A stretch of DNA of 55,445 bases, filler included, from Sphacelaria rigidula (Eukaryota): the NCBI GenBank assembly GCA_964200075.2. It is 5 parts of 5 records of this genome, joined end to end, with 100 filler letters (N's around TTAATTAATTAA, not from the genome) between each part and the next. Parts side by side here need not be neighbours in the genome. Positions count along the whole stretch, not along the records: positions 44,438 to 55,445 come from CAXNAA020005544.1; 4 more parts are not named here. One strand, written 5' to 3'. Within the stretch, counting starts at the first letter, position 1, and each line of letters opens with the position of its first letter. Position numbers and translations under genes: made by a program. This document shows positions 590 through 55,445 of the stretch, one piece after another. Under the pieces are notes generated by a model. That model was given only the letters and a program-made list of their open reading frames with translations. It was not told the DNA's origin and ran no database searches.

Positions 590-667
590 GGGGGGGGGGG
601 GAGCGCACTCACTTGTTGCTTGCCTTCGCCGGTTGGTCATTGAGCACGCAGCCCTATAGAGACGGAG
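590..667 (-). mobile_element. Short 5'-truncated copy of LINE family A, in tandem with the 672-1066 copy
   Basis: Diverged match to the family A terminal ~70 nt, followed by a C-run (G-run 590-601 on plus). Confidence 0.75.
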
Positions 668-671
668 TTTT

Positions 672-1066
672 GGGGGGGGAGGGGGCGTACTCATGTGTTG
701 CTCGCCTTCGTCGTTTGACCATTGACCACGCATCCCTTTCGAGACGGAGCACCGTTTCTACTCCTAATAGAGACACCTTCAACATTCCGGCGCTCATGAC
801 GTTTTTTCCACACATCCCACAAAATCATTTTACATATCTTATCCCCGTCCTCTTTTGCCGTCTGTGGCCACCATCTATCTTCTGGTATAACCATCGTTTA
901 CTCGCTACTGTCTAATGCATCAAACGATTTCATGTCACCTTCGTTCACGCATTTTCCCTCTTTAGCACGTCCCGTTCCTCCTTGTATAGTTCACATTCTG
1001 CGACTGACTAAATGAAATCTGCTCTCTATTGCTTTGCCACCGAGGCAGTTCTGTCCATCTACTTCC
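672..1066 (-). mobile_element. 3' fragment of LINE family A (CCHC zinc-knuckle C-terminus, oligo(C) tail)
   Basis: Homologous to 19513-20039. Encodes ..QNCLGGKAIESRFH.. and ends ..GVSIRSRNGAPSRKGCVVNGQTTKASNT-stop, then GTACG and a C-run. Confidence 0.8.
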
Positions 1067-4521: not shown

Positions 4522-4628
4522 GGGGGGGATGGTGTGTTCATGATCTTGCATGCTATAATATATCTGACCAATGACCTCTCATCCCTACGAAGCCGGGACG
4601 GAGCACGCCGGGTTTTCGCCGGACCAGG
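4522..4628 (-). mobile_element. SINE-like family B copy (oligo(C) tail)
   Basis: Matches 34348-34465 and 43227-43334; starts CCTGGTCCGGCGAAAACCCGG and ends ATGAACACACCATCCCCCCC. Confidence 0.75.
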
Positions 4629-4645: not shown

Positions 4646-4720
4646 GGGGGGGGGGTTCTCATTTGTTGCTTGCCTTGGTCGTTTGACCATTGACCACGCA
4701 TCCCTTTCGAGACGGAGCAT
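4646..4720 (-). mobile_element. Short copy of LINE family A flanked by G-runs
   Basis: Terminal ~65 nt of family A with G-runs at 4646-4655 and 4721-4728. Confidence 0.8.
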
Positions 4721-7700
4721 GGGGGGGGACAGCGAAAGGACGGAGAGGGGGATATGTCACTGTGTGTTACTCGCAGGAGCGATGGGTCACCCGAAGACAG
4801 AGCCTCGCGGATCTGGCTCTCGCAAGCGGCGGCAACTTCGTCCGAAATTCCTTTGCTCAGGGATCGCGTCACAAAAGAGGAATTGACGGCGTTTGCGACT
4901 GGCATATCGACTCATCAGGTAGCACTCCTCAGCGTGGTTTGTGGCGTGGCTCTCTTCTCACTGCATACATTCATGATGTCATCGCTTCACTTAATAATGA
5001 TTTCACGAAGTGGATTGTGTCTTTCCAAAAATACAGTATATGGTTGCATGAACAACGGCTTTCCGGAGCGGCTCATCTCTCGCTGTCTCCTGCACCTTTC
5101 CACATAAAACCCACTTTAAACGTTCTGGTTGGACTCGAGTCGTTTTACAAAGCGGCCGTGGGCAACAAAAGTGTGTACAAACGACTGCGTGTATGGTTGT
5201 ACGTAGCGGTGCAGTCATTTCGAAAAGTGGCTCATTCAGGCTAATCTCCGGTGGGTACGGATATTTCGATGAAAGAGCGGCTTTCTGGAGCGGCTCATCT
5301 CTCGCTTGGTTCTCCTGAGATCGAGTTCATAGCATCTCAAACGCCTCAGCTAAACTCGACCCGTTGTGTACGTCGCAGTACAGCCGTTTTGCAGAGTGGC
5401 CAAATACCCTCATCTGAAGGCTGTCAATCGCCTGCCTTCTGATATGGTGCGAGAACTGGGTAATTGCCTTGACACTAGAGCCAAATGGTTGTTGACTGCA
5501 CATCGCATTCAAGAAATTCGAACCCTGTACTGAATGAAAGTGATATGCTGAGAAGGGATAACGCATACCACGTCATCATTGAACCGACGGTGTATTGCAG
5601 AGGTCATAGTCCAACGATGGATACCATCGATATAATCTAAATACTGTAACAGTGACCTCGCTCATTCGCGTTTTTTCGGTGCCAGCGTTGAGCAGCTCTG
5701 GATTATTGACGGAGAGTCGATAAGTACTCACTCACCATAGTGAAACCAAGACGTTGTTGGCCACACCGAAACCAAGTACTCATTGACCTCACTGGAAGCA
5801 AGTAGGTACTGACTACACTGCAACTGACTATGTTTGACCACACCGAACCCAAGTGACTTAATCCCACACTACGCTCGAGTTTTATCATGGGCGTGAATGT
5901 AGTGTGCATTTAAATGCCATGATCCAACCGTGATGCTGGTGATTTGCAAAATGAATTAAACTGTTATCGGAGCACATATCCCTTATGAACACAGGGCGAC
6001 TGAAACTCCTCGGTCACATGATACTCAGGCGCAGCCGATATCTGGGTGGTGACGACGTTGTTCAGTTTGCATTCTGATGAAGAAACGGGCGAATGAAGTC
6101 TTTCACCTACAGGCTCGTTCACGCTTATCATTCGAAATCACCCATCCGCTGTACTTGACTCCGTTTATGTGGGATGAGACTCTGAAAAATTGCACACATA
6201 CACATATATCATGGGTTATCGCGAATTTTTCGAAAAGTGGGATCTTCAGATTTTCCATTTTCCCACCGGTTATAGGAGGTCTCAGGTTTCTGGCGGATCA
6301 CATATCCTTCTGGGAACCCCGCTAACCGGCAAGGAAAGAAATCGAAGACACTAATGTTTTAGAGTTATGCAATGACCCATAGTACGAGTGTGTACCGTTG
6401 CAGTCTTCCTCCAAAAAAATTCAAGTTTTTTGCTTCGGCGCGATCAACTGAAATTATAAGGTGGAAACTCCCAAAGCACTTGACTGCATTATCGCAATGA
6501 CTTTTTGGGTACATTTCTCGTGGAAACAACCTCTTTGCATCAGCATTTCGAGTTACGCAACGCAACTCTACAAACATTCCTTCTTTACCCCGGGATGCGT
6601 ACGTTTCGAATTTCTAGTTTCGCGGCATGAAGTGTCGGCCCCCAAGGGTTTTCAATGCCGGTAGAGAGCGGAGGAAGTTTGAAATATTCTAGAAGATTTT
6701 TTTTTCATTTAGAACTGCAAGATTGAGGGCGGTGTGAGCTTTCATACAACAGATACGAGGGAAACCGTCGGGAGGGTTCCTGGTTCTCGCGTACATATCA
6801 TCAATGGAGATCCGACGACGCCAAAATCCCACATCACCCGAATTACCACGATTTGGGCATAATTCGTTCCTACAGTCGTTACCGCTTTCATGTATGTTTC
6901 GAAGTGATGGCACGATAGGGGGGCGAGTTTGACTTCGCGAAAAACAGGGGCTCACGGGTGTGTCAGACGATATAAACACCTGCGGTACGTTTGTATTTGG
7001 GTGAAAACGGTGTCAAGTAACACGGATAAATGTGCCTTCTTGGTAACAAGCACATTCGAACAAAGGTTACTGCTTTCGACCAACGGTTTGAGGTGGAATT
7101 TCGTGGAAGGAATGCCCCAGAATCCCCCCCCTCCCCCTATCGTAGCATAATTCTTCATTCATTGGATTGCCGAGCGAATGGCTGATACTATGACTTGAAG
7201 TCTGGGGAGATTGAGTAAAACTTGTGTTAGGGGTTCGTTATCTCATTTCAGAACAAGTGGAAGGGCGCTGATTAGTCGGGGTGCCCTCTTGCCCCTACCA
7301 CCACCATGACAAACGACAAACATCTGGCCATGTCACTCTCCTTAGTTGCCCATGGCGGCCAGTATGGCATCGTATGTGCCACCGCTGTGTAGGTATTACG
7401 GAAGGTGTTTGCTGATCAGTCAACTTTGGGTGATGAGAGGAACTAGTTTACATATTTTTCGTGATTCTCTACAGACTCAGAAGCGGAGGCGGGAAACGTA
7501 CTGTGACTTGTGTCCTGCGGTTAGTGGAGCCCCTTTATACAGGGCATTTCGCAGTTGCCACAGCTGATAGTATTCGCTTCTTTTTGCCACAAATGTTGTG
7601 CTGAATTGTGCTCAGAGCCCATCTGAACGGGTTGAAAACACGAAAGCAAAGCAAGCGTCAAACAGCAGCATGTGGATCGGTCGCCGTGACATCAAGTGGC

Positions 7701-19512: not shown

Positions 19513-20039
19513 CCCCCAGTATCACCTGAAGATATTCGGCGGGGTGAGCGAAGGACTAGGGATGAAAGTATATCGGCATGGCCTAATGGACTCCGTAAAA
19601 AAAATGAAACAACGATTTCGAGTGGGAGACTTGGACCTGCCACAAAGAAGGAAGATGGATACCAGTAGTTGACTGGAGGAGGAAGTAGATGCACAGAACT
19701 GCCTCTGTGGCAAAGGAATAGAGAGTAGAACTCATATAGAGACAAAATGTGAACTATGCAGGAAGGAACGGAACGTGCTAGAGGGGGGAAATGTAGAAGG
19801 TAAATGAAGATAGCATGAAATTGTTCGATACATGAGACAGTAGCGAGAAAATGATCGCTATACCAGGAGATGGATGGTGGGCACAGATGGCGAATCAGGA
19901 AGAGGATAATATATGTACAAGAGTCTTTCCACGATAGTCTCCCCACATAAGTGCTCCGTCTCGACGTACATACATGGTCAAGGGTCAAACGACGAAGAAG
20001 GCAAGCAACAAATGAATATGCCCCCTCACTTCCCCCCCC
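19513..20039 (+). mobile_element. 3' fragment of LINE family A with CCHC motif
   Basis: Decayed frame ..RFRVGDLDLPQRR..NCLCGKGIESRTHIETKCELC..GDGWW.., an internal deletion near 19925-19950, then the family A terminus and a C-rich tail. Confidence 0.8.
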
Positions 20040-20289
20040 GGAGAAAACAAAAATCGCTGGTTTGGGGAGGCAAAATCCACACGTGAATCGAAATGAAAAA
20101 AGCCGAGCACGACGAGCGGGTGGGAATTGCCACGCTTGGGTTCGTTTCTGCCGATGTTCCCCACATGAGGCGATTCATGCAGCCTGGAAGCAAACATGAG
20201 GTGCTGTATGACCATTTTTGTCGTGACAGTTTTGGGCGGGTTTTAGGGGAGGGCTATCGTACAAGGTGAAAGCTAAAAAAAATCGTGTT

Positions 20290-20448
20290 ATGTATGGAAG
20301 AAACGCAATGAGCTCCCAAACGCCGGACATATCTCTATCAGGAGTAGGAGCGGTGCTGCGTCTCGCAAGGGATGGATGCGTGATGCGCGGTCAATGGTCA
20401 AACGACTAGGGCAAGCAAAAAATGAGTACGCCCCCCCCCCTTCCCCCC
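20290..20448 (+). mobile_element. Truncated LINE family A copy
   Basis: ..GGTCAATGGTCAAACGACTAGGGCAAGCAAAAAATGAGTACG followed by C10-TT-C6. Confidence 0.8.
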
Positions 20449-22220: not shown

Positions 22221-22435
22221 GGGGGGCCCGCACAAAAGGGGGTGGCACCGCGGGGGGGGGGGGGGGGGGGGGGTATGAGAAATCAAACACTTGTGGAGAC
22301 CTTTTTGACACTCTTGAGATGCGGAATGAAAAGGATATCTATCGTGATGACCGAACTGCTGCTAGCGTGGTGCAGAGGGGTGCGTCCATGCTGCAATCTG
22401 GAGCAGCACTAGCTGCGTGAACACCTCGGTACAGT

Positions 22436-24200
22436 TAGATATGCTAATCAAGGCCAAAACATTTAGGATTTGTTTTCAAAAAGTGTGTAAGATCTTCCTG
22501 ATGGAAAATCGCACAAGCCAATGAGATGGGAATAATCCACCCAGTCGATCGGCGAAGAAGCGAATGGCCCGCCCGGTCGGTTGGGAAAAGAGGCGCAAAA
22601 GACCATCTGCACCCATGATACGCACATCTTCCTGCTGCATCGCATCGCCCGTACGGTCTGTTCATCATTCATTTCACGTCAAAACTGTGACAATGCAACA
22701 CAGATGACCCACCCTGGGGGTGCCCGCCTGTATAGGTCGAGACAAAGCCGATCGAAAACCCACAGTGCAATGCTTTGTATTTCAGTACGGTGTTGTCTTC
22801 TCCCTTCCGCCACCCGTTACCTTCGTTCCTCTTGTCTATGGGTATCAACAAGGTTCAGATTACACGAAACCCTCCGACACCGCCATCCCTTCCTGCCTCT
22901 AGTTGCAAAGAAGTCCTTTGGCTACGGTGGGTATTCATTTTTTGAAGTAAATATTAAGCCCATACAAAAACAACTGACCCACCATGGGGGGGCTGCCGTC
23001 TGTGTGAATAGACAAAGCCGAAGTGCACCGTACAGCGCAGTACAATCAGTACAGCACAGCACAGTACAAGACAATGTTATCTTCTCTGTGGCCCCCGCCG
23101 CATTCCTCCCTTCTTCTGTGGGTATCGTTGAGTATCGGATTACTTCTTTGGAGATCGTTACTCCTTCCGCCCGCTCTAAACGTGACGCTTGATCTCCAGG
23201 ATGATGTCTTGTGTTTATTTTTCAAGTCAAAATCTCTGGACACGGTCGCCTCTTCCGAAATAACCGACACTAAAGTTAAACTCTCCGACCCTGAATTGGG
23301 TCATCTGGGTTTTGCGTGCATTTTTCAAGCGAAAAGTATGCCGACAAAAGATATGCCCGACCCTGGGTTGGGTGGAGGGTGAGTGACACTTGTCCGTGTA
23401 TTCCCAATGTACAAGCTCAAGTCGCAGCGGACGGAGGCTGTAGACGCGGTGCGGCGAACATGGTGGTACCAATACGATTACACCACAGACGAAAAGGAGA
23501 GCACAATTCGGTGACCATGATGTTGTCTGTTCCAGGACACGCCATGCTTTTTGCCCTGGGTTCCTTGTGCGGCTGTGTATACAAGTAGCGGAGCTTTCCG
23601 AGACAGAAAGTGTCTGAGTGTATCATATTTGCACATGCGCACGCACCGAACTGAAGTTACTCCGCGACCGATTCAGATCTGCCCCCCCACGTTTCCCCCG
23701 AGCCCTTTCTGGCTGTCATTATTTTTCACTTGAAGTTATTGGGGACGGTGCGTTCCTTAAAACATAGTTCATCGAGGGATTGGTTATATCCGGGTGGTTC
23801 TCCACGGTTACGTGCGCGATTCGAGCGCCGATTGTTGCGTTGGGTCCTCCCAATCCCGATGCACCATACTGCAGCGGCCGTTTTAAGGCACGTCCCGCGG
23901 TCAGATCAGTAAGCCGGAAAATGCATATTTTTTTCAGGTTTAGAGTGTACGCCTTCAAAGCAGGAGGACAAGGCCACTGCTATAGGGTGCGTGTGGATGG
24001 TCAGCAACAGGATGTAGGGTGTGAACAGGGAGGGTGTTGCCTGCGCGCGCAACCAACTCGTCAAGAGATTGAATTGTAAAAGCAAGTGTATTTGGGCGGG
24101 GCATCCTAGGACAAGAAAGGACAAGGGGAATCCGTGTCTGTGGTCGTTATGATTTCCTCGAACAGCTCATTCACTTTTTTTGCCCCGATTAGCATGTCTA
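22436..24200. mobile_element. 1.77-kb non-autonomous TIR element nested in the left foldback arm
   Basis: TIRs TAGATATGCTAATCAAGGCCAAAA / TTTTGCCCCGATTAGCATGTCTA; ACAGT is duplicated at 22431-22435 and 24201-24205 (or CAG if the TIR is 1 nt longer). The opposite arm shows the empty site. Confidence 0.8.
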
Positions 24201-25025
24201 ACAGTAGCTTTCCAAAATTAATCCCGATGTGAGGAGGTCACGCATTACAAGCTGGGGCGAGATATGAACCCATGAGAAACAAGAATGCTCTATGATCCAC
24301 CACTTGACGTTGCATTTGACACCCACGCCATCAACCGTCGACCGCAAAGGTCTCGTGGCTTTCAAGCAACGCTGGCGGCAGTACGAGAGGCAAACCCGAT
24401 CATAGCTAGCTTTCGTTGCTCTGCTGTACTGACTGTCGTCTGCACAGCGGTCACCCACCGTAACAACATGCACCGAATTTTGCAACAGCTGTAAAAACAA
24501 AACAGTTCGATTTTCTCAACTACGTCCACATGGTTTGAAGGACTCGTGCTACCTGAGCGAAAGTGGCCGCTTTGGGTCCGGCCAAACGTGCAAAGATACC
24601 GTCGGACAGCAATACGAAACTTTGCTGGCATTGACATACGGCAATCAGTACAGAACTGAACAAAAATCGACAGTTTAACGTTCTTATTGGAAAGTAACGT
24701 GCATGAAACGGTTTGCAGGTGGGACAACGCGGATTTCCATAGAAGAGAAACTCTCTGTTCCCCCGTGAGTGTGACATGCGCTTGCAAAACTCTGTTGTCG
24801 TTCTTTCATACCTGGCGGGGGGACGGAAAAGCCACCCTTCCTCAGGTATCAAGAGTCCTTCAAATCATGTGGATGTAGTTGATAAAATCGAACTGTTTTG
24901 TTTTTTTCAGATGATGCAAAATTCGGTGAATATTGTTACGGTAAGTGATCTCTGTGCAGACGGCAGTCAGTATAGTAGAGCAACGAAAGCTAGCTATGAT
25001 CGGGTTTGCCTCCCGTACTGCCGGG

Positions 25026-25335
25026 CTTTTTTTTTTTTTTCCTTTTTTTGTCATCATTATTCCATTATATTCCATTTTATTTGCTCTACACTTTCCTCCT
25101 CTTTTCCTTTTATTTTTCCTTTTTGTTTTGGTTCGGCCATTTCAATCTGTGCTTTGCTTTTGCTGACATTCTTTGTTATCATTCTTTGTTATGACTTAGT
25201 CTACTATGTCCTTATGTTCGACCTTTTTTTTAATGTTCCTTTTTTTTCTTCAGCGAGTGTTTTTTTTTAATGTATTTCTTGGATATGCCCATCATGAGAC
25301 CACGGCTGGACCCCTGGAGGGTCCGTTAGAGTGCG

Positions 25336-25372
<37 letters not shown>
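25026..25372 (+). mobile_element. Retroposon 3' fragment with (CAAT)n tail, nested in the right foldback arm
   Basis: Absent from the opposite arm. T-rich body, then ..CATGAGACCACGGCTGGACCCC..GAGTGCGA followed by (CAAT)9. A second copy lies on the minus strand at ~51393-51545. Confidence 0.7.
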
Positions 25373-25373
<1 letters not shown>

Positions 25374-26704
25374 CCGCCAGCGTTGCTTGAAAGCCACGAG
25401 ACCTTTGCGGTAGGCGGTTGATGGCGTGGGCGTCAAATGCAACGACAAGTGGTTCATCATAGAGCACTCTTGTTCCGCGTGGGTTCATATCTCGCCCCAG
25501 CTTGTAATGCATGACCTCCCCACATCGGAATTAATTATGGGAAGCTACTGTATCGAGGTGTTCACGCAGCTAGGGTTGCTCCAGATTGCAGCATGGACGC
25601 ACCCCTCTGCACCACGCTAGCAGCAGTTAGATCACCACGATAGATATCTTTTTCATTCCGCATCTCAAGAGTGTCAAAAAGGTCTCCACAAGTGTTTGAT
25701 TTCTCATCCCCCCCCCCCCCCCCCCCCCCCCCCCGGCTCCCCCCGCCCTTCTGGGGGCCCCCACGACGCCCCAGGCCNNNNNNNNNNTGTCTTTTCCCCC
25801 CCCCCCCCCCCCCAACTGGCGTGTGGCACGCTCTTGTGGTCGGGCACCCAGATGGTCACATGTCGGGTGAAATCAACGATGAATAACTCCGCCCATGTTC
25901 AAATTGGATCTGTTATTGCCCCAGCACCGTCCTTGCTGGCATGTGTGTGACAGAGAACAGTAGCGGTGACGGGAACATCGCCCTGTTTTTCAACGACGTG
26001 TTCTGCAGCGCACAGAGGCGCGTTCTGTCCAATGAGAGAGGCAGAGAGAAATCGATCTTTGCCTTGGTAAGCTCCACAGGCAAGAAGAGACGAGATCCCT
26101 CCGCACCTCGATGTTCTTTGGGGGGCTGTGCGCAGCAATATAACATGCCTATCGGCACATGAGAAATTAGGTAGATGCTGGTAACATGCATGACGCCAGT
26201 CTCTCGAGCGATTGGTAATCGCCGAGCGAGGATACACAAAGGACACGGGCGAGGAACTTCCTCTCTGCCGTTGCTTTTCTCTCTGGTGACATCGTCATCG
26301 ACACGCGTATACACCGCATTCGTTCGGTGCACCTATAGCCACAACTGCTTCACTGCTGCAGACATTTTGGGGGAAATATGGTTTCGCTCTGTGTATCTGT
26401 TTCGCATCATCCGCGCAAAAAAGAGATGTCACTTGAAGCTCATTTTAGGGATCAATCCCATTTTCCAGGATCCACTGTTGTTTGGTGTGACAGTGATGTT
26501 CTCATGAAGTCAGCACAGCAGCATATATATGCATGAAGAATGAGTGTTGACCACAACTTGACACAGACAGCGAGTAGTACAAACAACATAAAACAAAGGT
26601 GACGTTTTTCCGGCTTGCACAGAAGTTCAGAGCAGGAGAAGGGAGCACGCATGCGATACAGCAGAAGACGTTTTTTGGCTCACCTCCCACAGATATGGGT
26701 AACT

Positions 26705-34127: not shown

Positions 34128-37040
34128 CTTCGGGTCATCAGACTCTGCCATCGCGCGAGAAGCGCACTCAATGGCGTCTCGTTGCATACTCTCCGGCATG
34201 TCCGCGCTGAGCACTCTCCTTCGTTCCACAGGCTTCTCCTCCTGCACCAAACCCAACGACTGGCCAGGTTTCCTCGGCGCAAGCTTTCCCGTGCTTCTCC
34301 GTCGCCTCTGCATACCACACCAACAAAATGGAAGGGCGGCGGCGACAGGGGTGGAGGGGGGGGGGGGAGGGTGCTCATGATCTTGCATGCCATAGTCACA
34401 CGACCATTGATCTTGGATCCCTACAAAGCCGGGACGGAGCACGCCGGGTTTTCGTCGGACCAGGCAAAACGGGAGGGGGGCGGGAGGGGGCGAGATTAAG
34501 AAATATCGCGTACTCCTTCTGCAGCAAAAATTTGAAAGCTCTCAGGCCGCTCCTTGTAAAAGGCAAAAATAAAGTCTGCACAAATTCCTTTTTGGAGCTT
34601 TCACGTCGTTTTACGCCCCAAAAGAGAGTTAGGCGAAGTTTGACACCTTGGGATGACTTGCTCCACTAGTTGAGGCGGTTCGAGGATATCTTCCCGTTTT
34701 GCGGTGGCCGCAGTTTTATTTCTGGTCAAACAAGATTTTTTGTCAGATGACGGTACCGGTCACATCTATAAAACATCGCCACTTCTCTGTGGACTCGACT
34801 GTTATTCACCGTTCTTTGATAAAAATTCTTGTTTGGCCAGAATGAATACTGCGGCCACCGTAAAACGAAATGATGTCCTGGAACCGCCTAACTAGTAGAG
34901 CAAGTCATTCTGGGTGTCGAACTCCGCCTAGCTCTCTCTTGGGGGGTAAAACGACGTAAAAGCTCCAAAAAAAACACTTGTCCAGGTTTTTATTTATGTC
35001 TATTACAAGGAACGGCCTCAACTCTATAAAGTAGGGTATACCCGGAAGTGGGGACTTTTGGCCGGCATACAAACCCCCCGATGTCATGTGTACCCAATAT
35101 TCCGGCATGGTCCGGCTGTTCCGAACTATACGGCATGGTTCGGAAGGGTATTCACGAATGAAGATATCTCCTCTATGCTTTTTCTGTACAAACCCGAGAT
35201 TTTCAGTCGGTATACCCTGCAGGATACAAAATTGGCTTCAGTTTCTCCGAGTTCGGCCTGTATAAAGATCCATATCCTGACCACTTCCCTTTCCTTGTGA
35301 AAAACCCACTGCCCCGAAGAATCAATCCATCTCTCCCGTGGTACACGCCCTGCATTTGGCTCTCGTGGATTGGATCAGCCCTCACTACATATTTTACACC
35401 TTGGATATAACGCACACGTCGGACAGATCACGATCCGTCTGAAAATTACTTATTTTCAGCATACTGATCGGGATTATGTAACCCGCCTTTTCCATGTGTG
35501 CTCCCTCCAGCCCCGGACGCCGAGCACGCCGAGTAGCGCAAAGGTTGCGCTTTGGCTCTTCTGACTTCAAGGTCACGTAGTTTGTGTTTTCAGACCAAAG
35601 GATTTGAGAGTCTTGTTTGATCGGTTGTTCCAGACAGATCATCATTTGTGTGACGTGTGATATCATGTATATGGTCAACAGTTGCGGTAGGCAAAACAAA
35701 ATGTACTACGCAAACTGTAGGACTTTCGCAACTATTGACCTTAGCCGATAATAGTTGCAAGACGCCCATAGTATACTCTACGCAGTACGTTTTTGGAATA
35801 TTGCAACTATGAACCATGACTGAAAATGGTTGCGATAATGCCTATACAATACTGCACGCAGTACAATCCGAGCCAGTTTACAGCCCTAACAATAGACGGT
35901 CAATAGTTATAGGATGCCATTCAAATACTTTGAAAGCGGTCAGCGATTCGAAAACCATTCATCTGTAATATACAGCAGCAGATTCTCCGTGAGGAGAGGA
36001 AGATGCAAACAAGCCAAGGCTGGCAGCACGCGGGGATAAGAGCGCAAAATAATTCACGTCCGGAACCACAAGCACGCATGCACTTGAAGTGCAAGCCATG
36101 GTGTACCTTGTATTTTGTGGTCGCGGAGTACCGTTTGTTTGCTATTTTTGATTCCAGATGTGTCATGAAACGACAAACCTGGCATATATCCGCAATATCA
36201 GTTCGAGGTATAGTGACCACGAGTACTGTACTGTTGTACTGGCTGTACCTGTACTGTTGTCAGCTACAGACCCCAATCCTACTGTCATTTTGTTCGTAAT
36301 CATGTTAGCATCTTTGTTGTAAATTTACCATACTAAAGGTGGTATAAACATAGCTGGTAACGGCAAACTTCAAATAAACTGGATAAACTGGAGTGCTCAT
36401 CACCAGTTCCAGTTAAACTGCCAGTACAAACTGGTCCAGTTCACAGCCGTATATTTTGTCATAGTCAAGGGTGTGCTATATATCTCAACACTTCTCGTGC
36501 AAACATGGAACCATTGTACAGGGGAACCAGCCAAAAAAACTTCTCACCCGAGACCCAACACTCGCTCGTCCATCGACGGACGATCGAGATTCTTGTGCGG
36601 AGCTGCTGCTGCCGGGCGGAGACCCCGCATAGGCGGGTGACGACCCGGCGGACGCCGACCCCAAATAACCGCCGCCGAGTCTGACTCGGCTTTCGGAGGC
36701 GGCCGGCGACATATTCCTGTACGATGCTCCGGAGGGAGGAGATCCGTATCCAAATCCGAATCCGGTACCCTGGATGCTGTGGCTGCGGTGCATTACCGGG
36801 GACGAATTGGATCCAATGCTCTCGCTGCGTCGCCGATGCAGGGGTACGGGCGATGGATTTCGCGATCCGCCCCGGCTGCCGCTGCCGCTGCTGCGGGCGG
36901 AGCCAGTGGAGTGTCGGTTGCTACGTCTGTCGCTGCCGGGCGTGGTGACGTATGGCGATGCGGGCGAGTCTGCGGAAAAGGAAAAATCGAGCGATATATT
37001 TCCTCCCGATGTCTTGCGCCTGGGTGTTCTGTTGGGTGTT
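34128..37040 (-). CDS. Dynein light chain type 1 (LC8) domain protein with long S/G/P/R-rich N-terminal region; partial, two supported exons
   Basis: Exon 37040-36548 is low-complexity, with a good acceptor and GTGAGA donor, and splices in phase 0 to exon 34307-34128. The latter encodes VLSADMPESMQRDAIECASRAMAESDDPK, which aligns by eye to the start of LC8 (..ADMSEEMQQDA..CA..A). The rest of the domain was not found in this scaffold. Confidence 0.72.
34348..34465 (-). mobile_element. SINE-like family B copy in an intron, G-rich flanks on both sides
   Basis: Matches the other two B copies over the full length. Confidence 0.75.
34545..35017. mobile_element. PIF/Harbinger (Tourist)-like MITE, largely palindromic
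   Basis: GGCCG...CGGCC termini, ~150-bp inverted arms and a 3-bp TSD TCA (34542-34544, 35018-35020). A related arm at 11111-11244 ends GGCC-TAA, and another lies at ~37880-38040. Confidence 0.8.
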
Positions 37041-37377
37041 CTGCGAGGAAGAGGAGTGTGTCGGGGGTACAGTAATGCGGTGTCAGCGCAAATGACGGGG
37101 GCTATAGTTGCAATTGCCGTATGCTGCGATTGCAAACAATTTCAGACCTCTGAATGACTGAAGACCACAAATCTTCATCAATAAAATGTTACGTACAAAG
37201 GTAACTGCGTTTGGTTCTCATATTATAGCCCATCAGGCCGCTTTCCTTACACGAGCTGGGCCAGCTCAGAGTAGGTGTGAATCTCGCTCAGGCGACGCAC
37301 GGCGCGATATTAGGAGTTGGGCGCCGGAATTTTGACAGCAGCTTTTTATTATCGAAATCCAGAAGGTCACGTGAGAA

Positions 37378-37410
<33 letters not shown>

Positions 37411-39754
37411 GGGCATTTGAAATTTCAGCAAAAACAAGATAATGTCAGAAGTTCAGGAAAAAAAGAGAATCTGCAGCTGGACACGTAGTATCAGCTCCTT
37501 GGGTGCAGAAGGTCTTCCTGAAATTTCAGCTCAAGAGCCGTCGAATTGGGCCGTGCGTTCAACTTTGCCGTGACGCTGCTGCACCCCTATTAAACAAGCG
37601 ATGGGAGATCCCAATTATGGAGATCACGAGTTCGAATCCCGACATATTATCTTTTTTTCCTCAGTCGTTAAGGCCATACATTATGCAGCACATTTTGTAC
37701 AATTTTTTCCTTCATTCAGCGGCGATGCCGTGTGTGACCAGGTTGGTCTACACGGCACAGTGATATCCTCACATCAGGTTTTTTCGGGAAGGTGGGGAAG
37801 CTGTGGTGTGAGCAAGTTTTAGCAACTTTTAAGCTGGCCCAGCTCGTAGCAACCGAGGGAAGAAGTCCTGTGATAAATCTTGTTTTGGTCCCTTCTTCGT
37901 CGTTATACGCCCTAAAAGAGAGCAAGGCGGAGTTTGATCATTGCAATGACTTGCTCCACTCGTTGAGAGGGTTCCAGGGTATGTTCGCGTTTTCCGGTAC
38001 CCCCAGTTTTATTTTGGCCAAACAAGTATTTTGGTCCAGAGACAGTCAAACTCACAAAAATGGGAGTTTCAATCTCTAGACTTGACCCTTCTTGGACAAA
38101 AACACAAGGACTGAGCAACTATCTCTCTTCTCTTCTTACCTGTCCAAAATAATTGGAATGGTTTTTTTGGCGTCTCTAAAAAACTACGGTAGCTTCCAGG
38201 AGAAATCTGTAAGCCTGTCTTGAATCGAAAACTTAGAAGATCTCGTTCAGGAATCTACCCTCACATTTTTCGGACACTGATTATTTTTTTTTAATATATT
38301 TGATGGTACCACGTTTCCGTGAGAATGAGTAGAGTGTTGATCGGGAGCGGGCTCATTCATTCGCTTCAAATTGATCCATTTCTCACTCCGTGTGTGCTTC
38401 TGTTTGCCTGCAACACTGGCGTGTGCTTATAGCTACACGTTAATATCTCACTCAGAGATAACAAGGGCTTCAGTGGCAACCGACCTCCTACATGAAGCGT
38501 ATCGGGCATCGTGGAGAGTATTTTCGGAACTGAAACGATTCATTCATCAATTGACTGCTTCTCACTCACTCTCAATCATATCCTCTACTCTCAATCTCAC
38601 GAAAAACTGTTGTTATTTGTCGAAAAACAAAAAAAAAACTGTTCAGAAAAGGTCGGAGATTTCGAGAGGAGGTCCGTAAAATGCGTTTGCCAGTTTGAGG
38701 TCCCCCGATCTGCGCACAGATACAGATTGGTGACCGTCACGAATACTATAGTAGTCCAAGACACAACATCACGAGTAGGACATCGTTCCTCGACGGAAAA
38801 AATGCGGTGAAAAAATGAATCCAATCTGATGGGTCGTGATGGATGTCGACGTTACTCGTTTTGACAACATGACGATCCATGAGAACAACTTTTTCCCCTT
38901 CTCCACCGCACCTTTTCGATCGAAAAAACATTTTTTTTCTGTAATACGTCACGGCCTGATCACAAAAAATTATATATATATGTATATATATATTTAAATT
39001 TCGTAGTCAAAACGGGGCTGACTCAACCCTTTGACCGCCAGCATGCGTGAGTACAGCAGGTCATATCATCTGTTGCGTCGGCATCAATTCCATCGAAGAA
39101 ACAAATGCGTCCCAGATGACCTACCCTCACGGTCGGAAGGTTACCCGTTCGAATCCACCGCGAGATACTCAGGCAACTCGAGTTCCCATCTATCCATGCT
39201 GCATCCATCCCAAGGCACTCCTCGTCTTCTATGAGAGTGTATGTGTGTTGTCCTGTTTATTCTGGACGCCGGTCTACACCTTTCGCTCTATGTGGGCGTA
39301 TCAGCCGGGGTTACATAGGAGGAAGGTCAACACAGGAGCTTTTTCATTTTTTTTGTTTTAGTACCCCACCTTCCTTCTGCGGTGCTTTCCTTAATTTTAT
39401 CGCAAGAGGGGTTCAGCAGTCCCTTTCCCTCGTTGACCGTGTAGTCGAATGAGTACTACACTTCATTCTCTCTTCGCGACTGCTCCTCTAGAGTCAACCT
39501 GAAGGTCCGAGGTCGTGTTCTGTGTCTGGTATACCGATTGAGATTCGGGCATTCTACGGGAGTATGGTCAAGAGATTGATAATATCGGTAAATGACCTTC
39601 CGACCGAGGCATACCCAAGTGTTCGGAACAAGGATTGACACCCTGCTGGACCGTACCGGAATGCTCGATATACGTGTAAGCCAACAACAAAATCAAGCAC
39701 TTTCGGGTATACCCTACACACGACACGACCTTGCGAGGTTCATCTTGACGTTAA

Positions 39755-42832: not shown

Positions 42833-43226
42833 CTAGGACACTTTCTGCACCCCCGTCACTGCGTAAGCTACGCGACCACGTTACCGATTCTTTTTGCGCG
42901 CTTGCGTTTTTTTTTCCCTTTTCACAGGTAACCATGATGGTAGTCCAGCTAGATCATATTCTGCGGGTTGTAGAACATGAACTCCGGGCAAAGGAGATGA
43001 TCGTGCCAACTAGCGTGTAAATGGTGAGACAGCTATGAGGCAGTGTATAAGCTATGGCTGTCTCTGGAAGTGGCGATACCAGAAAATGAAGCAACTTCAT
43101 GGAGGCTGTCATCCAAATGCAAGATAATCAGTGGGTTTCGGGCCGAACAATCTCAGCAGGATGCAGCTCGCCCTTCATGCGACCCGCCGAGCACCACGGC
43201 GCTTCGCGCTTCATGATTGAGTGCGA

Positions 43227-43334
43227 GCCTGGTCCGGCGAAAACCCGGCGTGCTTCGTCCTGGCTTTGGAGGGATGCGAGGTCAATGGTCAGATGACTAT
43301 GGCATGCGAGATCATGAGTACACCCCCCCTCCCC
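43227..43334 (+). mobile_element. SINE-like family B copy
   Basis: GCCTGGTCCGGCGAAAACCCGG...GGTCAATGGTCAGATGACTATGGCATGCGAGATCATGAGTACA followed by a C-run. Confidence 0.75.
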
Positions 43335-44337
43335 GCGCGCCCGAGGGTTCTCTCATGCCTTGGGCGGGGTTCGGGATAGACTTGACAATGGGTAAGATCC
43401 CCGCGAGGATAGCCCATGCGGATCATGTACCTTTTACCAGGTGAACATGAGACGGATTCAACAGATGACCTACGAGTGCTCTTGCCGTCGAAGGGTTAAA
43501 ATCTACGGGGAAATTCGAGTTTGAGATACCTCCAATACCCGTAGACATAACTCCTTGTTATTTCATCCAGTGGCGGATCACGAATTCGATCCGCATGGGC
43601 TCACAATTTTATTGGAATCCAAAGAACATTGAAAACTCGTCTTCAAAGAAGCCCCTTGTGCCACTGTGAACAATCCCATCAGCCCGAACCTTACAAGAAC
43701 TGAAGGCACGGGGGGCGGGGTCCACTGTTGAGACTGACGAGAGTCAAAAGCTTCAACGAAGCGGTTGCCGCGGGGCAAGAGGGGGTTTGATACAGGCGCC
43801 GCCACGCAGCGTTTGTTCACGGACAAAGCTTCGGGCCGAAAATAAATCATGACCTCGTAGGTATCGAATTGGTTATGCATCTCAATTGGACCTCGCGCAT
43901 TTCCGTTGAGGGCTGTTTAGGACATGGTTTAAATCTTCATGAGTAAAGGTGTCGCCGACCCAGTTACGGTTGGCACTATGTAAACAGGGTGCCAACCCTA
44001 ACGCTATTTCTAGTGCCCACCAATGTATACCAATAACCCTCGGGCACAGGTGGGAGGGGGGGGGGGGGGGGGGGGCAGAGGGTCCCCTAGGCAAAGTGTG
44101 GCATTGGTAGATCTCAAATCGGCGCCGGAACGGAAACACGGTCTGGGCGAACTAGGAGCAGTTGAGACTGTCAGTCCTCTGAGGGCCTGTCTTAACCCTT
44201 GGACCGCGAGGTAAGTCTTCTGTTGAATCGGCATCAATTTCAAGTGGAAAAAAGTACGCATGGTCCAGGAAGACTAATCTCGCTGTCTAAACGAAGGGGA
44301 TAATCCCCTTTTTCACCATCCCCTTTTGACAGGGGAT

Positions 44338-51240: not shown

Positions 51241-52779
51241 GTACGGAGAGCAGTGTGGGGAATGCTATTCGCCGATGACGCGGCCGTTATCTCGAGGTCA
51301 CCCGACGGCCTGGCGAGGATGATGGGCATCACAGTACGCGTGGTTCGGGCCTACGGACTGACGGTCTCGGAGAAGACAGATTCTACTGCTGTGATTGATT
51401 TGATTGATTGTCGCACTTTAACTGAACCATCAGGGGTCCAGCTGTGGTCAATGGTCAAACGACTAAGGCAAGCAACAAATGAGTACGCCCCCCCCCGGGG
51501 GGTCCAGCCGTGGTCTCATGATAGACGTACCCAAGAAAAACGAAACTGAAACACGCTTTGAGGAACATTATGTGAGTACCGGGAAAATCGCCACAGAAGG
51601 GGGAGCCACCAACACCACCTCCCTCGTCACTGGTACACAAAGCAGCGGGCCAGAAGTACGCACAAACCACCAAGTTTCGATACACGGGTGGGCTCGTCAC
51701 CAAAGGTGACGAGCTCACACAAGAGATCAACAACCGGAGCAGAGTCGCGTGGGCATGGACCAGAGAGTTTTCCCGCGAGCTCTTTGATCGACCGAAAGCA
51801 CCGTGGAGACTCAAGGTCCGTCTGCTGAAGGCGGAGACGATGAAGGCCTTACTGTACGGATGCATGACGTGGGCCCCGCGCCGCGAGCACTACTGGTTGC
51901 TGAGGACGGTACACTACCGGCTACTACTGCAAGTTATCGGGTACCGCCGCGTGCGTGGCACATGCCGACAGTTATCGCACGCCCAGGCTCTCAAGAATAC
52001 CGGATGCCAAAGTTTTGAAGCAATCGTCCAGCAACGGCGATTGCTGGTCGCGGGAGCCCTGGCTTTACAACTGGACGCACGACTACCGAAGCGACTGGCA
52101 TTCGGAACACTCGTGGGGGGCGGAGGGTCCAGGACCAGGGTGCCCGGCGCAAAACTGGCTGGAGTGTCTGAGGGACGATTTTCAAGCTTTCGGAGCCACG
52201 AACGGCTCTACGGACAACAACCGACAGACGTTCGGAGTTGAAAGTGCACAATGGCCTTTAGCAGCGAAGAAGTAAGGCGGGATACGATGGCACGCGGGGG
52301 TGCTGCAGGGAGCGGAGAGGTTCATGACCTCTTCGCACAAACGAGGAGGAGGCCAGCCAAATACATGCGAATAAACGGGATCTTTGAGGAGAGCAGGGAT
52401 GAGATGGAAGAATGCGAAGCCAGCTTGTACCGAACTGAACATGGCGGAAGGGGCAGGACTCTCCATCATCTCCCCTTGCCTTCTTTTTCCCTATTAATTG
52501 CTGGCTTCCATGCACCCCTACCCCGAAGTGGTGTGTTGTTATGTGGTGCTTTTCCTGCTATGTTCATTCGTACACGTGGCTGTCCCTCTAGAGGTCCAAG
52601 GATGGAACCCTGAAATTCTTATCGCTATGGTTGGTGATCTTGGTCCCTGAGGTTTGACTCCCTTCCTATTTGGCTTCGCGTGTTGAGTGGACCAATGGAC
52701 CCTGCCTCCAGGGGCCCGAATGGTCGCACAAGGCATCGGAACTTGGGAGGCTAGGAATATATATATATATATATATATA
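51241..52779 (+). mobile_element. Decayed 5'-truncated RTE-like LINE (RT C-terminal half plus 3' region, ends in (TA)n)
   Basis: VWGMLFADDAAVISRS (RT YADD-type motif), YGLTVSEK, then KALLYGCMTW and QQRRLL..G...RLPKRL, typical of RTE ORF2. Frameshifted and interrupted at ~51380-51550; (TA)n at ~52758-52779. Confidence 0.85.
51450..51496 (+). mobile_element. 47-bp family A insertion with target-site duplication
   Basis: GGGGTCCAGC(T/C)GTGGTC is duplicated at 51433-51449 and 51499-51515; an empty-site homologue is visible at ~25290-25335. Confidence 0.8.
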
Positions 52780-53289
52780 CATGTTTCTTTTCGTTAATAT
52801 TTTTATTTCGTTTGTTCGTTCGATGTTTGTTTGTATCGCGTATCTGTGAATTCTTTCTGGGTCCGATTTTTTATCTTTTACTTCACTCTATTTTTTGGGG
52901 TAGTTAGCCTGTGACCACGGAAGGCGTAGTCATCAGAAGCCCAGTACAGAGTACTGCGAAGATATCGGAACTTTTTTTATGTGAAGACAACAACAACAAC
53001 AACAACAACAACAGCAACGACTTTGAACCCCCCCCCCCCCCACCCCCCGCCGATACACGCCTTGCCTGTTGGTCCCGCGGAACGGATCAGCAATCCCGCA
53101 CCGTGTCGACTCTCGCGAAACAAACTCATTCGAACAAACTATTTTCGCTACGAACGTCCGCATGTTTCCAAAGACGGAAACGAAATACTTCGAAGAAAAA
53201 ATATGAACACATGTAGCGGGTATCAAACCCATATGTTCTCCACCCTAATGTTGTCATTTATATTATTACATCATTGGGGCGCGGCAGAT

Positions 53290-53580: not shown

Positions 53581-54660
53581 TATCCGACCTTCCTGTACAA
53601 TCTTACTTCTGTACCGTCGGTGTTACTGTTTGTACCATCTGTAATAAATTGTATCGTTGTACGGCTACATCACAGTATTACTGTCGGGCAAAATGACGTC
53701 GCTTTGAACACGGGTAACGAAGATCCTACCGATGTCCCGCTTAGTTCGCGATCCAGGTCGACACAAGGCGCGTGAGAGTTGAAAAGAAAAACCGCACGAA
53801 TTGGACCGCGGCGGGTTGTGCTGGCGTCAGGTCTATTTATTTCGACCCTCCGGCGTCCTTGTCTGCTATTGGGTTGTCGGCAGCTTCTGTTATTTTTCCT
53901 CGCGATCGTGACATATCCATATTTACCACTATCGTTTCCGACGCTGGCTCTCTCATCGAGGAATCAGACCCGCGGTCCGCATTGTTGCTCATTTTTCACT
54001 CCTTCTACCCGTCTATCCGTCTACTCAAATACCGAAGGTTAGTGAACGCTCTTTCCTGAAAACTGAACTTTGGATACAAATCGGAGTTATAAATCATTAG
54101 GGGAGTGATGAAACTACATGTTTTCTTGTTATTGGTGGTCATCATTCTCTCTCATAGTCAAGGTAGTGTGTGAAGTGACGTCACGACGTCACCAACGGTC
54201 AGTGTTACTGATATCACACCCAAGCGATAGTCTTCACCCCGGTACTACTGAGTTTACATACCCATAGTTTGGGTAGGGTTTTGAGATCATACCCAAGTGA
54301 TACTTTATACCCAGGTGTTGCTGAGATTATTTGCCCAATGTTTGATTACTCGTAGAGTACTGAGATCACACCCAACTCTATCCAAAATTTTGGTTACAGT
54401 ATTGAGATGGCAATCTATTTACTCACAACTTGGGTAGAGTGAAAACCCGCGGCTATTGTGCCCGGCACTCAAACACACATACGAGCTGGGCCAGCCAACA
54501 ATGGGTGGTTTTCGCGCCAAGGCGACGCACGGCGCGATATTAGGAGTTGGACGCTGAATTTTTGATAGCAGTTTTTATGATCGACATGCAGAACATCACG
54601 TGAGCAGCAAAGAAAAAAAAAACAGGAAGTTACAGGTATGATGATTTGAAATTTCCAGGG

Positions 54661-54706
54661 GGGCGTACTCATTTGTTGCTTGCCTTAGTCGTTTGACCAT
54701 TGACCA
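54661..54706 (-). mobile_element. 46-bp family A insertion with perfect 14-bp TSD
   Basis: TGAAATTTCCAGGG at 54647-54660 and 54707-54720 flanks the family A terminus. Confidence 0.88.
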
Positions 54707-54726
54707 TGAAATTTCCAGGGAGGGAT

Positions 54727-54920
54727 ACGTGACACGTGAACGTGAGCGTGACGTGAATCACGTTCGTCAAATTTAACGTGACGTGAACGTGACGTTAATC
54801 ACCTTAAAAAAATTGAACGTGACGTTTCGTCACATGTCACGTAGTATGTCACGTGATATTGTCACGTATCACGTATTATGTAACGTGACATTGACACGTG
54901 TCACGTTCGAATTTAACGTT
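54727..54920. repeat. ACGTG/CACGT-rich short-period repeat with orientation switch
   Basis: Many ACGTGA units followed by mostly TCACGT units, giving a loose palindrome. Confidence 0.6.
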
Positions 54921-55445
54921 TCATTCTATGCATATCGCGGCTCACACCAGGGTTGGAGGTGTTTTGACATGTCGTGTAACGCGTAGAGTCACCGTGTGCG
55001 TGGCACTGATGGTCGCCTATCGTATGTTTGATCGTAGGCGCATTATTTGAGTGTATAACGCTTTTTTCTCTACAGTGTATCATGCATTCGTCCTTGACCG
55101 GATAAGTTTCCCTGTCTTTTCACTGTCTCATTTCAAGTTTTCAAGATTCGAATGCTTGGTCATTCGCACGACAGCGCATACTGTACATAGAATAGTTCGC
55201 GAACGAGATTGAACGCCAGCTTGAGTCTTCCTGGCATTTCCCAGACAGAACTACGTCGGCACCCTTGGTTCTACACGTGTATGACAGGTTTACACCGCCA
55301 GGTAATCTACACATTCGTCTGGCTTGACAAGCTTTTGCTTCACTGTACACAGACTGATGGATTTTTCACTTTTCCATCAGATCAAACCGCCACGAAACCA
55401 GCCGTTGCGGTAGATGCTGAAGCTGAAGGCACCGGCCGAGACTGA

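Follow-up and report, generated by a model that had tools for sequence, protein, structure and literature searches.

Target sites and tails of a C-tailed LINE in the brown alga Sphacelaria rigidula suggest G-primed reverse transcription

In LINEs of the RTE, CR1, L2 and I-factor types, a genomically templated repeat tail matches the first bases of the target-site duplication, and passages of PMC6007223 relate that either pairing or tail-guided cleavage has been proposed. For L1, passages of PMC7617806 and PMC13708176 report in vitro support for pairing between tail and target; the former also reports that stimulation was abolished when the nicked target was changed to CCGGCG, and that the staggered second nick falls at +7 to +19 nt in vitro. 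The closest described elements are those of Ectocarpus sp. 7, for which the supplement rows of PMC12477816 list RTEX-1_Ec32 with a single EN-RT ORF, '(C)n 3'' and a 'C-rich' TSD, RTEX-2_Ec32 with '(C)n termini/TSD', and RTEX-N1/N2_Ec32 as a non-autonomous partner of about 600 bp; the last 60 bp of RTEX-N1 are 83% like the LINE, and it 'can be present in tandem'. Other classified LINE rows of that table end in (CAA)n or (CA)n, and the green-algal RTEX elements described in passages of PMC3747384 have tails of repeats such as (CA)n, (CAA)n and (CCAT)n. The traits of the Ectocarpus elements are given as table notes: the available main text of PMC12477816 contains no match for 'C-rich', 'priming' or 'reverse transcription', and its supplement rows and passages hold no counts, nick position or truncation peak for RTEX-1 or RTEX-2.

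A C tail with a C-rich TSD in Ectocarpus relatives, and tail/target pairing for RTE, CR1, L2 and L1, are thus already on record. What is new here are the counts, the signs of a nick inside the C run, and a sharp truncation peak at 66–67 nt, which coincides with the border of an RNA domain predicted to be closed. We regard the pattern as a G:C form of a priming principle already known, seen in a family for which the C tail and the bias towards C-rich targets had been recorded before. A literature search, whose coverage excluded most subscription papers and Repbase, returned no account of C-tail priming; matches from Blepharisma concern the end of a DNA transposon.

The window analysed is a stretch of 55,445 nucleotides composed of five contigs of about 11 kb each with N linkers between them, and is not contiguous DNA; the genome assembly comprises 244 Mb in 27,214 contigs. 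We collected 200 ends of a LINE family, termed family A, and 60 ends of a related family B from about 860 kb of loci. Most of these copies were picked by an exact 36-mer or as best hits, not randomly, and the unbiased set is small (22 ends). Both flanks are readable and the 5' end lies within the model in 135 A copies, which are those used below. Poly-C tracts were counted in a 255-kb sample whose choice did not depend on the element, consisting of the window and 20 x 10 kb (L230-L249). Coordinates are collected in Table 1.

Table 1. Features discussed in the text, as positions in the window unless a locus is named
Feature	Position	Strand	Remark
N-flanked linkers at contig joins	11011-11110, 22121-22220, 33230-33329, 44338-44437		
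64-nt family A tip, C tail, immediately behind the 671..1066 copy	590..667	(-)	
Family A copy, ~382 nt, C-rich tail	671..1066	(-)	head-to-tail with 590..667
95-nt family B tip, C-rich tail	4522..4628	(-)	immediately behind the A tip of 4646..4728
66-nt family A tip between C8 target run and C10 tail	4646..4728	(-)	tip e.g. 4654-4719
66-nt family A tips, examples	4654-4719; L062:1-66	(-) for 4654-4719	
~67-nt family A tip, C-rich tail	19951..20040	(+)	behind longer A remnant 19680-19920
~135-146-nt family A tip, C-rich tail	20285..20448	(+)	
Paralogous empty site of the 51433 host repeat, CCCTCC-A-GGGG	25293..25321	(-)	CCCTCC at 25314
96-nt family B tip, C-rich on both sides	34348..34490	(-)	
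Long family B copy with C tail	42850..43334	(+)	homology to other copies to at least 42850
44-nt family A tip (51444-51487) with C9 tail (51488-51496)	51433..51515	(+)	
Older host repeat, recipient of the MITE-like element	54481..54654	(+)	window paralog 37251-37426; 742 candidates
Target-site duplication, copy behind the tail	54647..54660	(-)	identical to 54707-54720; element strand begins CCC
Three C beyond the duplication, element-supplied part of C6 tail 54658-54663	54661..54663	(-)	
Last 43 nt of family A LINE, 5'-truncated: ORF end, stop codon, few pre-tail bases	54664..54706	(-)	
Target-site duplication, 5'-junction copy, across the border of two older repeats	54707..54720	(-)	
MITE-like repeat end; its GGGAGGG (CCCTCCC on the element strand) is the target	54715..54930	(+)	173 candidates

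Judged from its sequence, family A is an apparently single-ORF APE-endonuclease/reverse-transcriptase LINE (RTE-X-like) of a brown alga, present in thousands of copies. The 386-nt copy at 681-1066, used as query, returned 4853 candidates in the genome, and an exact 36-mer of the family A tip occurs 876 times in the genome (control, 0). Longer copies run upstream into reverse transcriptase and then endonuclease motifs, and the ORF stops a few bases ahead of the tail. No intact family A copy was recovered in the S. rigidula genome. Two intact relatives, P0001 and P0002 (1360 and 1328 aa, single ORFs), carry nearly the same C-terminal peptide as family A, and all four metagenome relatives with a 3' end terminate in (C)n. 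Both relatives score above the Pfam cut-off (P0001: Exo_endo_phos, E 3e-12; RVT_1, E 1e-30), and a profile of the P0001 endonuclease built from 49 sequences finds L1 endonuclease as its best match (E 1e-21). The endonuclease model (pLDDT 95) has L1 endonuclease among its top fold hits, with the catalytic motifs in register; an earlier model from 5 sequences (pLDDT 36) was not used, and a single-sequence PDB search with the endonuclease returned noise only. The same endonuclease and reverse transcriptase motifs are visible in broken copies of the algal genome itself, including an RVT_1 hit in L192; two endonuclease fragments from this genome gave no Pfam hit on their own. Thus, the family combines an APE endonuclease N-terminal to the reverse transcriptase with 5'-truncated copies, a common 3' end, a tail and duplications of variable length, as in APE-type LINEs.

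Likened by the table descriptions, family A very probably belongs to the lineage of Ectocarpus RTEX-1/2. Like these, it has a (C)n 3' end, a C-rich TSD and, in its relatives, a single EN-RT ORF, and the cluster of P0002, a relative with a near-identical C-terminal peptide, includes Ectocarpus proteins. The RTEX clade label for family A is provisional, being taken from the best-hit notes of the Ectocarpus paper; no named RTEX reference stands among the hits. A search of viral contigs with the family A tip pattern gave no match. Family B, which is identical to family A at 55 of the 67 terminal positions (12 differ) and has a length of at least 470 nt, appears to be the non-autonomous partner of family A, and in both respects resembles RTEX-N1. 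As for a Pol III head of family B, no tRNA was found in 43000-43340 and no Rfam hit near threshold in 42900-43400; the true 5' end lies perhaps further upstream. The 5' ends of family B seem clustered at about 95-101 nt and about 300 nt from the end (4533-4628, 34370-34465, 43020-43322).

With human L1, family A shares the APE-type endonuclease, a homopolymer tail that would pair with a homopolymer primer, and duplications of 7-23 nt, near the +7 to +19 of L1. L1 differs in that it adds poly(A) and nicks at the T/A junction of TTAAAA, whereas the C tract of family A appears to be template-encoded and the nick apparently falls within the run; moreover, L1 has two ORFs and relaxed RNA recognition, whereas family A apparently has a single ORF and a conserved 3' tip common with its partner. 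As in the 'stringent' LINE/SINE pairs described in passages of PMC3747384, this tip is conserved across an autonomous and a non-autonomous family, its predicted stems being kept while loops vary; unlike in those pairs, the family A tip reaches into the end of the ORF, 5' truncation is concentrated at the border of the predicted domain, and covariation is not significant. Finally, the tail/duplication overlap of RTE, CR1, L2 and I-factor is one to several bases long with A/T-rich tails, while that of family A involves a pure C run, commonly matches over 3-13 bases and consists of G:C pairs.

The sequence TGAAATTTCCAGGG occupies 54647-54660 and again 54707-54720, an exact 14-nt duplication around a 46-bp insert (54661-54706) which, on the (-) strand that the element follows, consists of 43 nt of family A and 3 C; the duplication opens with CCC. 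An earlier note on this DNA had described a 46-bp family A insert within a perfect 14-bp duplication whose GGG end abuts the tail, and that description is borne out. The 14-nt match is not due to chance, since the strict duplication rule applied below fired on only 10 of 1158 mismatched flank pairs. The site itself is, by comparison of repeats, a three-layer nest, in which an old repeat appears to have received a MITE-like end and this in turn the LINE tip. Among 19 paralogous ends of the MITE-like element, found in 15 of 19 other loci, none has the insert and 15 read GGGAGGG; the C-rich target is therefore older than the 54647 insertion, and the empty site, as read from the paralogs, is CCCTCCC on the element strand. 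The older host repeat continues without a G run at 14 sites, which lie in 13 of the 19 other loci. Among the joints listed from public runs, none represents an orthologous empty allele of this locus. The insert would then be a 5'-truncated copy produced by target-primed reverse transcription.

The C-tail and C-run target pattern is real, genome-wide and well supported. At least 7 of the 10 nt that follow the element end are C in 175 of 198 cases for family A and in 50 of 59 for family B; at least 7 are A at none of the 198 A ends, and the L1-type combination of poly(A) and TTTT is not seen. On the other side, within the 30 nt outside the 5' junction, where no duplication call is needed, C4 is present in 90 and G4 in 11 of the 135 A copies, and C4 in the next 30 nt further out in 13; the same three figures for family B are 12, 0 and 6 of 19, and C4 occurs in 9.5% of random 30-mers. 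A family with (CAA)n tails in the S. rigidula genome (a 32-mer with 134 exact occurrences, 40 fetched, 34 usable) served as control; C4 stands outside its 5' end, which is roughly placed, in 4 of 34 copies (Fisher p 8e-9 vs family A). The earlier note had let its case depend on C/G enrichment of pre-insertion sites at the 3' junction relative to background: these sites are strongly C-enriched, the signal is strand-specific, and it is absent in the control LINE. A 3' end of the control family, which is RTE-like, lies in the window at about 52880-53015 (+); the duplications of this family are short or absent, reaching at least 9 nt in 1 of its 34 copies.

Duplications were called by a strict rule (an exact duplicated core of at least 7 bases, at least 4 of them non-C), which fired in 27 of the 135 A copies vs 10 of the 1158 mismatched flank pairs. 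The locus-specific core is directly preceded by C in 25 of these 27 (null, 24.6%) and by at least 3 C in 23 (null, 1.5%); the tail base thus matches the start of the duplication above chance, which amounts to 3' microhomology. Duplications are about 7-23 nt long and open within the C run. The rule found no duplication in 108 of the 135 usable A copies and in 18 of the 19 B copies (1 in 19 had one); the 27 are a subset, since old copies and all-C duplications cannot be called. The G runs that the earlier note reported on both sides of 4646-4728 (G10, G8) and 34348-34490 are seen, with no callable non-C duplication at either. No upstream T stretch is evident in the profile of the 27 sites.

Target runs would suffice to put C on both sides of a copy, and this raises the question whether the endonuclease alone picks G/C runs, with pairing unneeded and the tail consisting mostly of duplicated target enlarged by slippage or by untemplated G addition at the cDNA start. 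The RTEX-2 entry in the supplement of PMC12477816 would accord with this, as would tails of just 2-3 C and the priming of R2Bm without pairing described in passages of PMC6007223. We nevertheless hold it to be unlikely, in view of the run lengths. Compared with the target run, the run on the right has more C in 16 of the 27 copies, as many in 2 and fewer in 9, and the element therefore usually supplies C of its own, as with the three extra C at 54647 and the C9 at 51433 compared with about C6 in its paralogs. Furthermore, since C follows any genomic source copy, a tract of C is to be expected in its transcript. In 7 of 27 copies the target run has more C than the whole tail, which places the nick inside the run, unless runs shrank later; homopolymer lengths can drift after insertion, which weakens both the longer and the shorter counts.

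Use of sites rises with the length of the run, from about 1 per 1000 sample sites at C3 to about 100 at C10 or longer (small counts), the median target run being 5 and the longest 13. This rise fits pairing and nuclease preference equally. It could also be expected if copies were patched into breaks at fragile poly-G tracts (e.g., G-quadruplexes) through microhomology of the C tail, independently of the endonuclease, and the genome sample, with 15 C/G runs of at least 15 vs 0 A/T runs, holds long tracts of this kind. Runs of these lengths are, however, short for stable quadruplexes, and the clean 7-23 nt duplications, together with the endonuclease motifs intact in the relatives, make such break capture very unlikely.

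G-primed reverse transcription on a C tail is in our opinion the best model and a likely one, the nick and the pairing being deduced from genomic data. In this model, the RNA would acquire its C tract by transcription of the genomic tail of its source copy, and the protein would bind the last ~67 nt of the RNA. As no enzyme adding poly(C) to transcripts of this kind is known to us, the source copy itself is most likely the template of the tract. The endonuclease would nick the G-rich strand within a short G run; the freed G-ended 3' end would then pair at some point along the C tract of the RNA and prime the cDNA, a step which the strong statistics above favour and as a consequence of which the new tail could be longer or shorter than the target run. 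A second, staggered nick would yield the duplications of ~7-23 nt opening in the C run, and synthesis would often stop 66-67 or 35-44 nt from the end, the last two steps being visible in their outcome. Each new copy would leave C runs on both sides, open to re-targeting. The earlier note had a ...GGG-3'OH left by the endonuclease pair with the oligo(C) of the RNA; the C-enriched sites support the core of this proposal, with the amendment that the nick appears to lie within the run. Its description as a G:C analogue of the L1 mechanism holds loosely, given a nick inside the run in the 7 copies mentioned and a C tail that is presumably copied from the genome, not added like poly(A).

Pairing that selects among loosely chosen nicks is in our view somewhat more likely than an endonuclease strictly reading G runs, the data being compatible with both. 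A bolder version, in which the endonuclease itself nicks oligo-G, the C tail is template-encoded, and a closed 67-nt RNA domain suffices for mobilisation and sets the truncation point, is possible but doubtful. If true, the element would correspond to the L1 system in a compact form built on G:C pairs; the tail and the specificity of the nuclease would have changed jointly, and every copy would make targets for the next. Copies with short tails were also inspected by eye for pairing into the last bases of the element, and show no clear pairing of this kind (2 of 5).

The copy at 51433 gives further information on empty sites. Its duplication is 17 nt long with one mismatch (51433-51449, 51499-51515) and starts with GGGG; the left copy reads ACCATC-A ahead of GGGGTCC, so that the filled locus has no C run on its left, which makes it one of the two exceptions among the 27 duplications. 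By eye, 21 distinct paralogous sites span this position, 16 with at least 5 C, 3 with CCCTCC and 2 otherwise C-rich (4 more hits that stop short of the site are left out of the count), and public-run contigs that skip the insert show C-rich letters at the joint. The claim of the earlier note that the empty site begins with CCCTCC is thus right for the paralogous empty site (25314, -), while the filled locus reads otherwise. We had regarded this copy as a counter-example to C-run targeting and withdrew it as such once the C run was seen in the paralogs, which do not account for the filled flank itself. The copy is hosted by a repeat with a (TTGA)n-like end (51385-51545, 25293-25350).

The 5' ends of family A are far from evenly spread. 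Counted from the element end, 61 of the 135 copies start at 60-72 nt (31 of them at 66-67), 18 at 35-44 and 3 at 45-59; among the 81 copies outside 36-mer loci the numbers are 19 at 60-72, 3 at 35-44 and 0 at 45-59. A consensus was also built from the loose ends in four public runs: in two of them (905 and 136 pieces) it changes to a run of C precisely at -66, and in the other two it continues into the element. The last 67 nt are predicted to form a closed domain, in which the first six bases pair with the pre-tail bases and enclose two hairpins (z -2.1); folding of 66 nt plus tail gives z -0.16, and with the tail added an alternative fold wins in 2 of 5 family A tips. Between families A and B, 1 of the 42 paired positions is changed as against 11 of the 25 unpaired ones (p 3e-5), in a tip that in family A is also coding. 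Within family B, variation in one loop is three times that in its stem (52/193 vs 44/490). Covariation in the tip stems is not significant, being matched by 108 of 500 shuffles. A protein-protected RNA fragment or a stop of the reverse transcriptase at the predicted domain edge may lie behind the 66-67 nt peak, the chances being about even.

Copies often stand behind one another. In 26 of 168 cases an earlier copy in the same strand ends no more than 50 nt ahead of the 5' junction, and in 4 the copy abuts one in the opposite strand, with a chance expectation of about 0.2% per copy, which agrees with the observation in the earlier note that copies land beside earlier ones. Sequential insertion into the older tail, i.e., duplication of that tail behind the newer copy, is clear in just 4 of 31 head-to-tail pairs, and insertion into the left-hand C run or one-event tandem copying may therefore explain some of the others. 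This low number, and the marked uniformity of the 66-67 nt copies, would be in line with there being no target preference at all, the flanking C runs having arisen from later slippage, one-event tandem copying, or a short element with its own C-rich 5' end. We find this scarcely credible: the left C run lies outside the locus-specific duplicated core in 25 of 27 copies, 10 of the 31 copies of 66-67 nt have a locus-specific duplication of their own, and the empty paralogs already have the C run, which largely refutes it.

The suggestion that element tails seed the many poly-G/C tracts of this DNA fails for most tracts. In the 255-kb sample, 18 of 113 tracts of at least 7 C, 5 of 37 of at least 10 and 1 of 15 of at least 15 stand at an end of family A or B, though copies of great age may have escaped this count. 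Behind the ends, the longest run has a median of 8 and reaches at least 15 in 14 of 251. The dependence may instead be reversed, with abundant C runs supplying the targets. Most of the C/G runs of at least 15 in the sample lie away from element ends, and most have unique flanks.

The G-primed model would explain clusters of short head-to-tail repeats in brown-algal genomes, and the data carry the warning that copies only tens of nucleotides long are real insertions; a C-tailed LINE does not account for the long poly-C tracts of the genome. The family offers a natural test of a point that the passages of PMC6007223 leave undecided, namely whether a tail steers insertion by pairing or by the choice of cleavage. 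Its pure C tail, strand-specific target signal, intact relatives P0001 and P0002 and short RNA tip make this question testable.

Several further features of the DNA were noted. Of 260 ends, 7 have one and the same short motif after the C tail (L014, L029, L034, L063, L087, L101, L129), and in 2 of those 7 it is also present in the left flank; it may be a favoured target within another repeat. A broken remnant of another LINE, presumably RTE-like by resemblance, occupies 51290-52400 (+) of the window and is split by the repeat that carries the 51433 copy; this remnant gave no Pfam hit, and P0001 showed no similarity to it at 51576. Long nested inverted repeats at 22238-25744, with arms that are 88-93% complementary and poly-G/C at their outer ends, are probably DNA transposons. 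The repeat with the (TTGA)n-like end recurs in the MITE-like loci L152, L154, L158, L160, L162, L164, L166 and L169. The MITE-like repeat at 54715-54930 has inverted ends (inverted pairs in L152, L164, L166, L168), ACGTGA-rich subterminal repeats and A/T-rich flanks.
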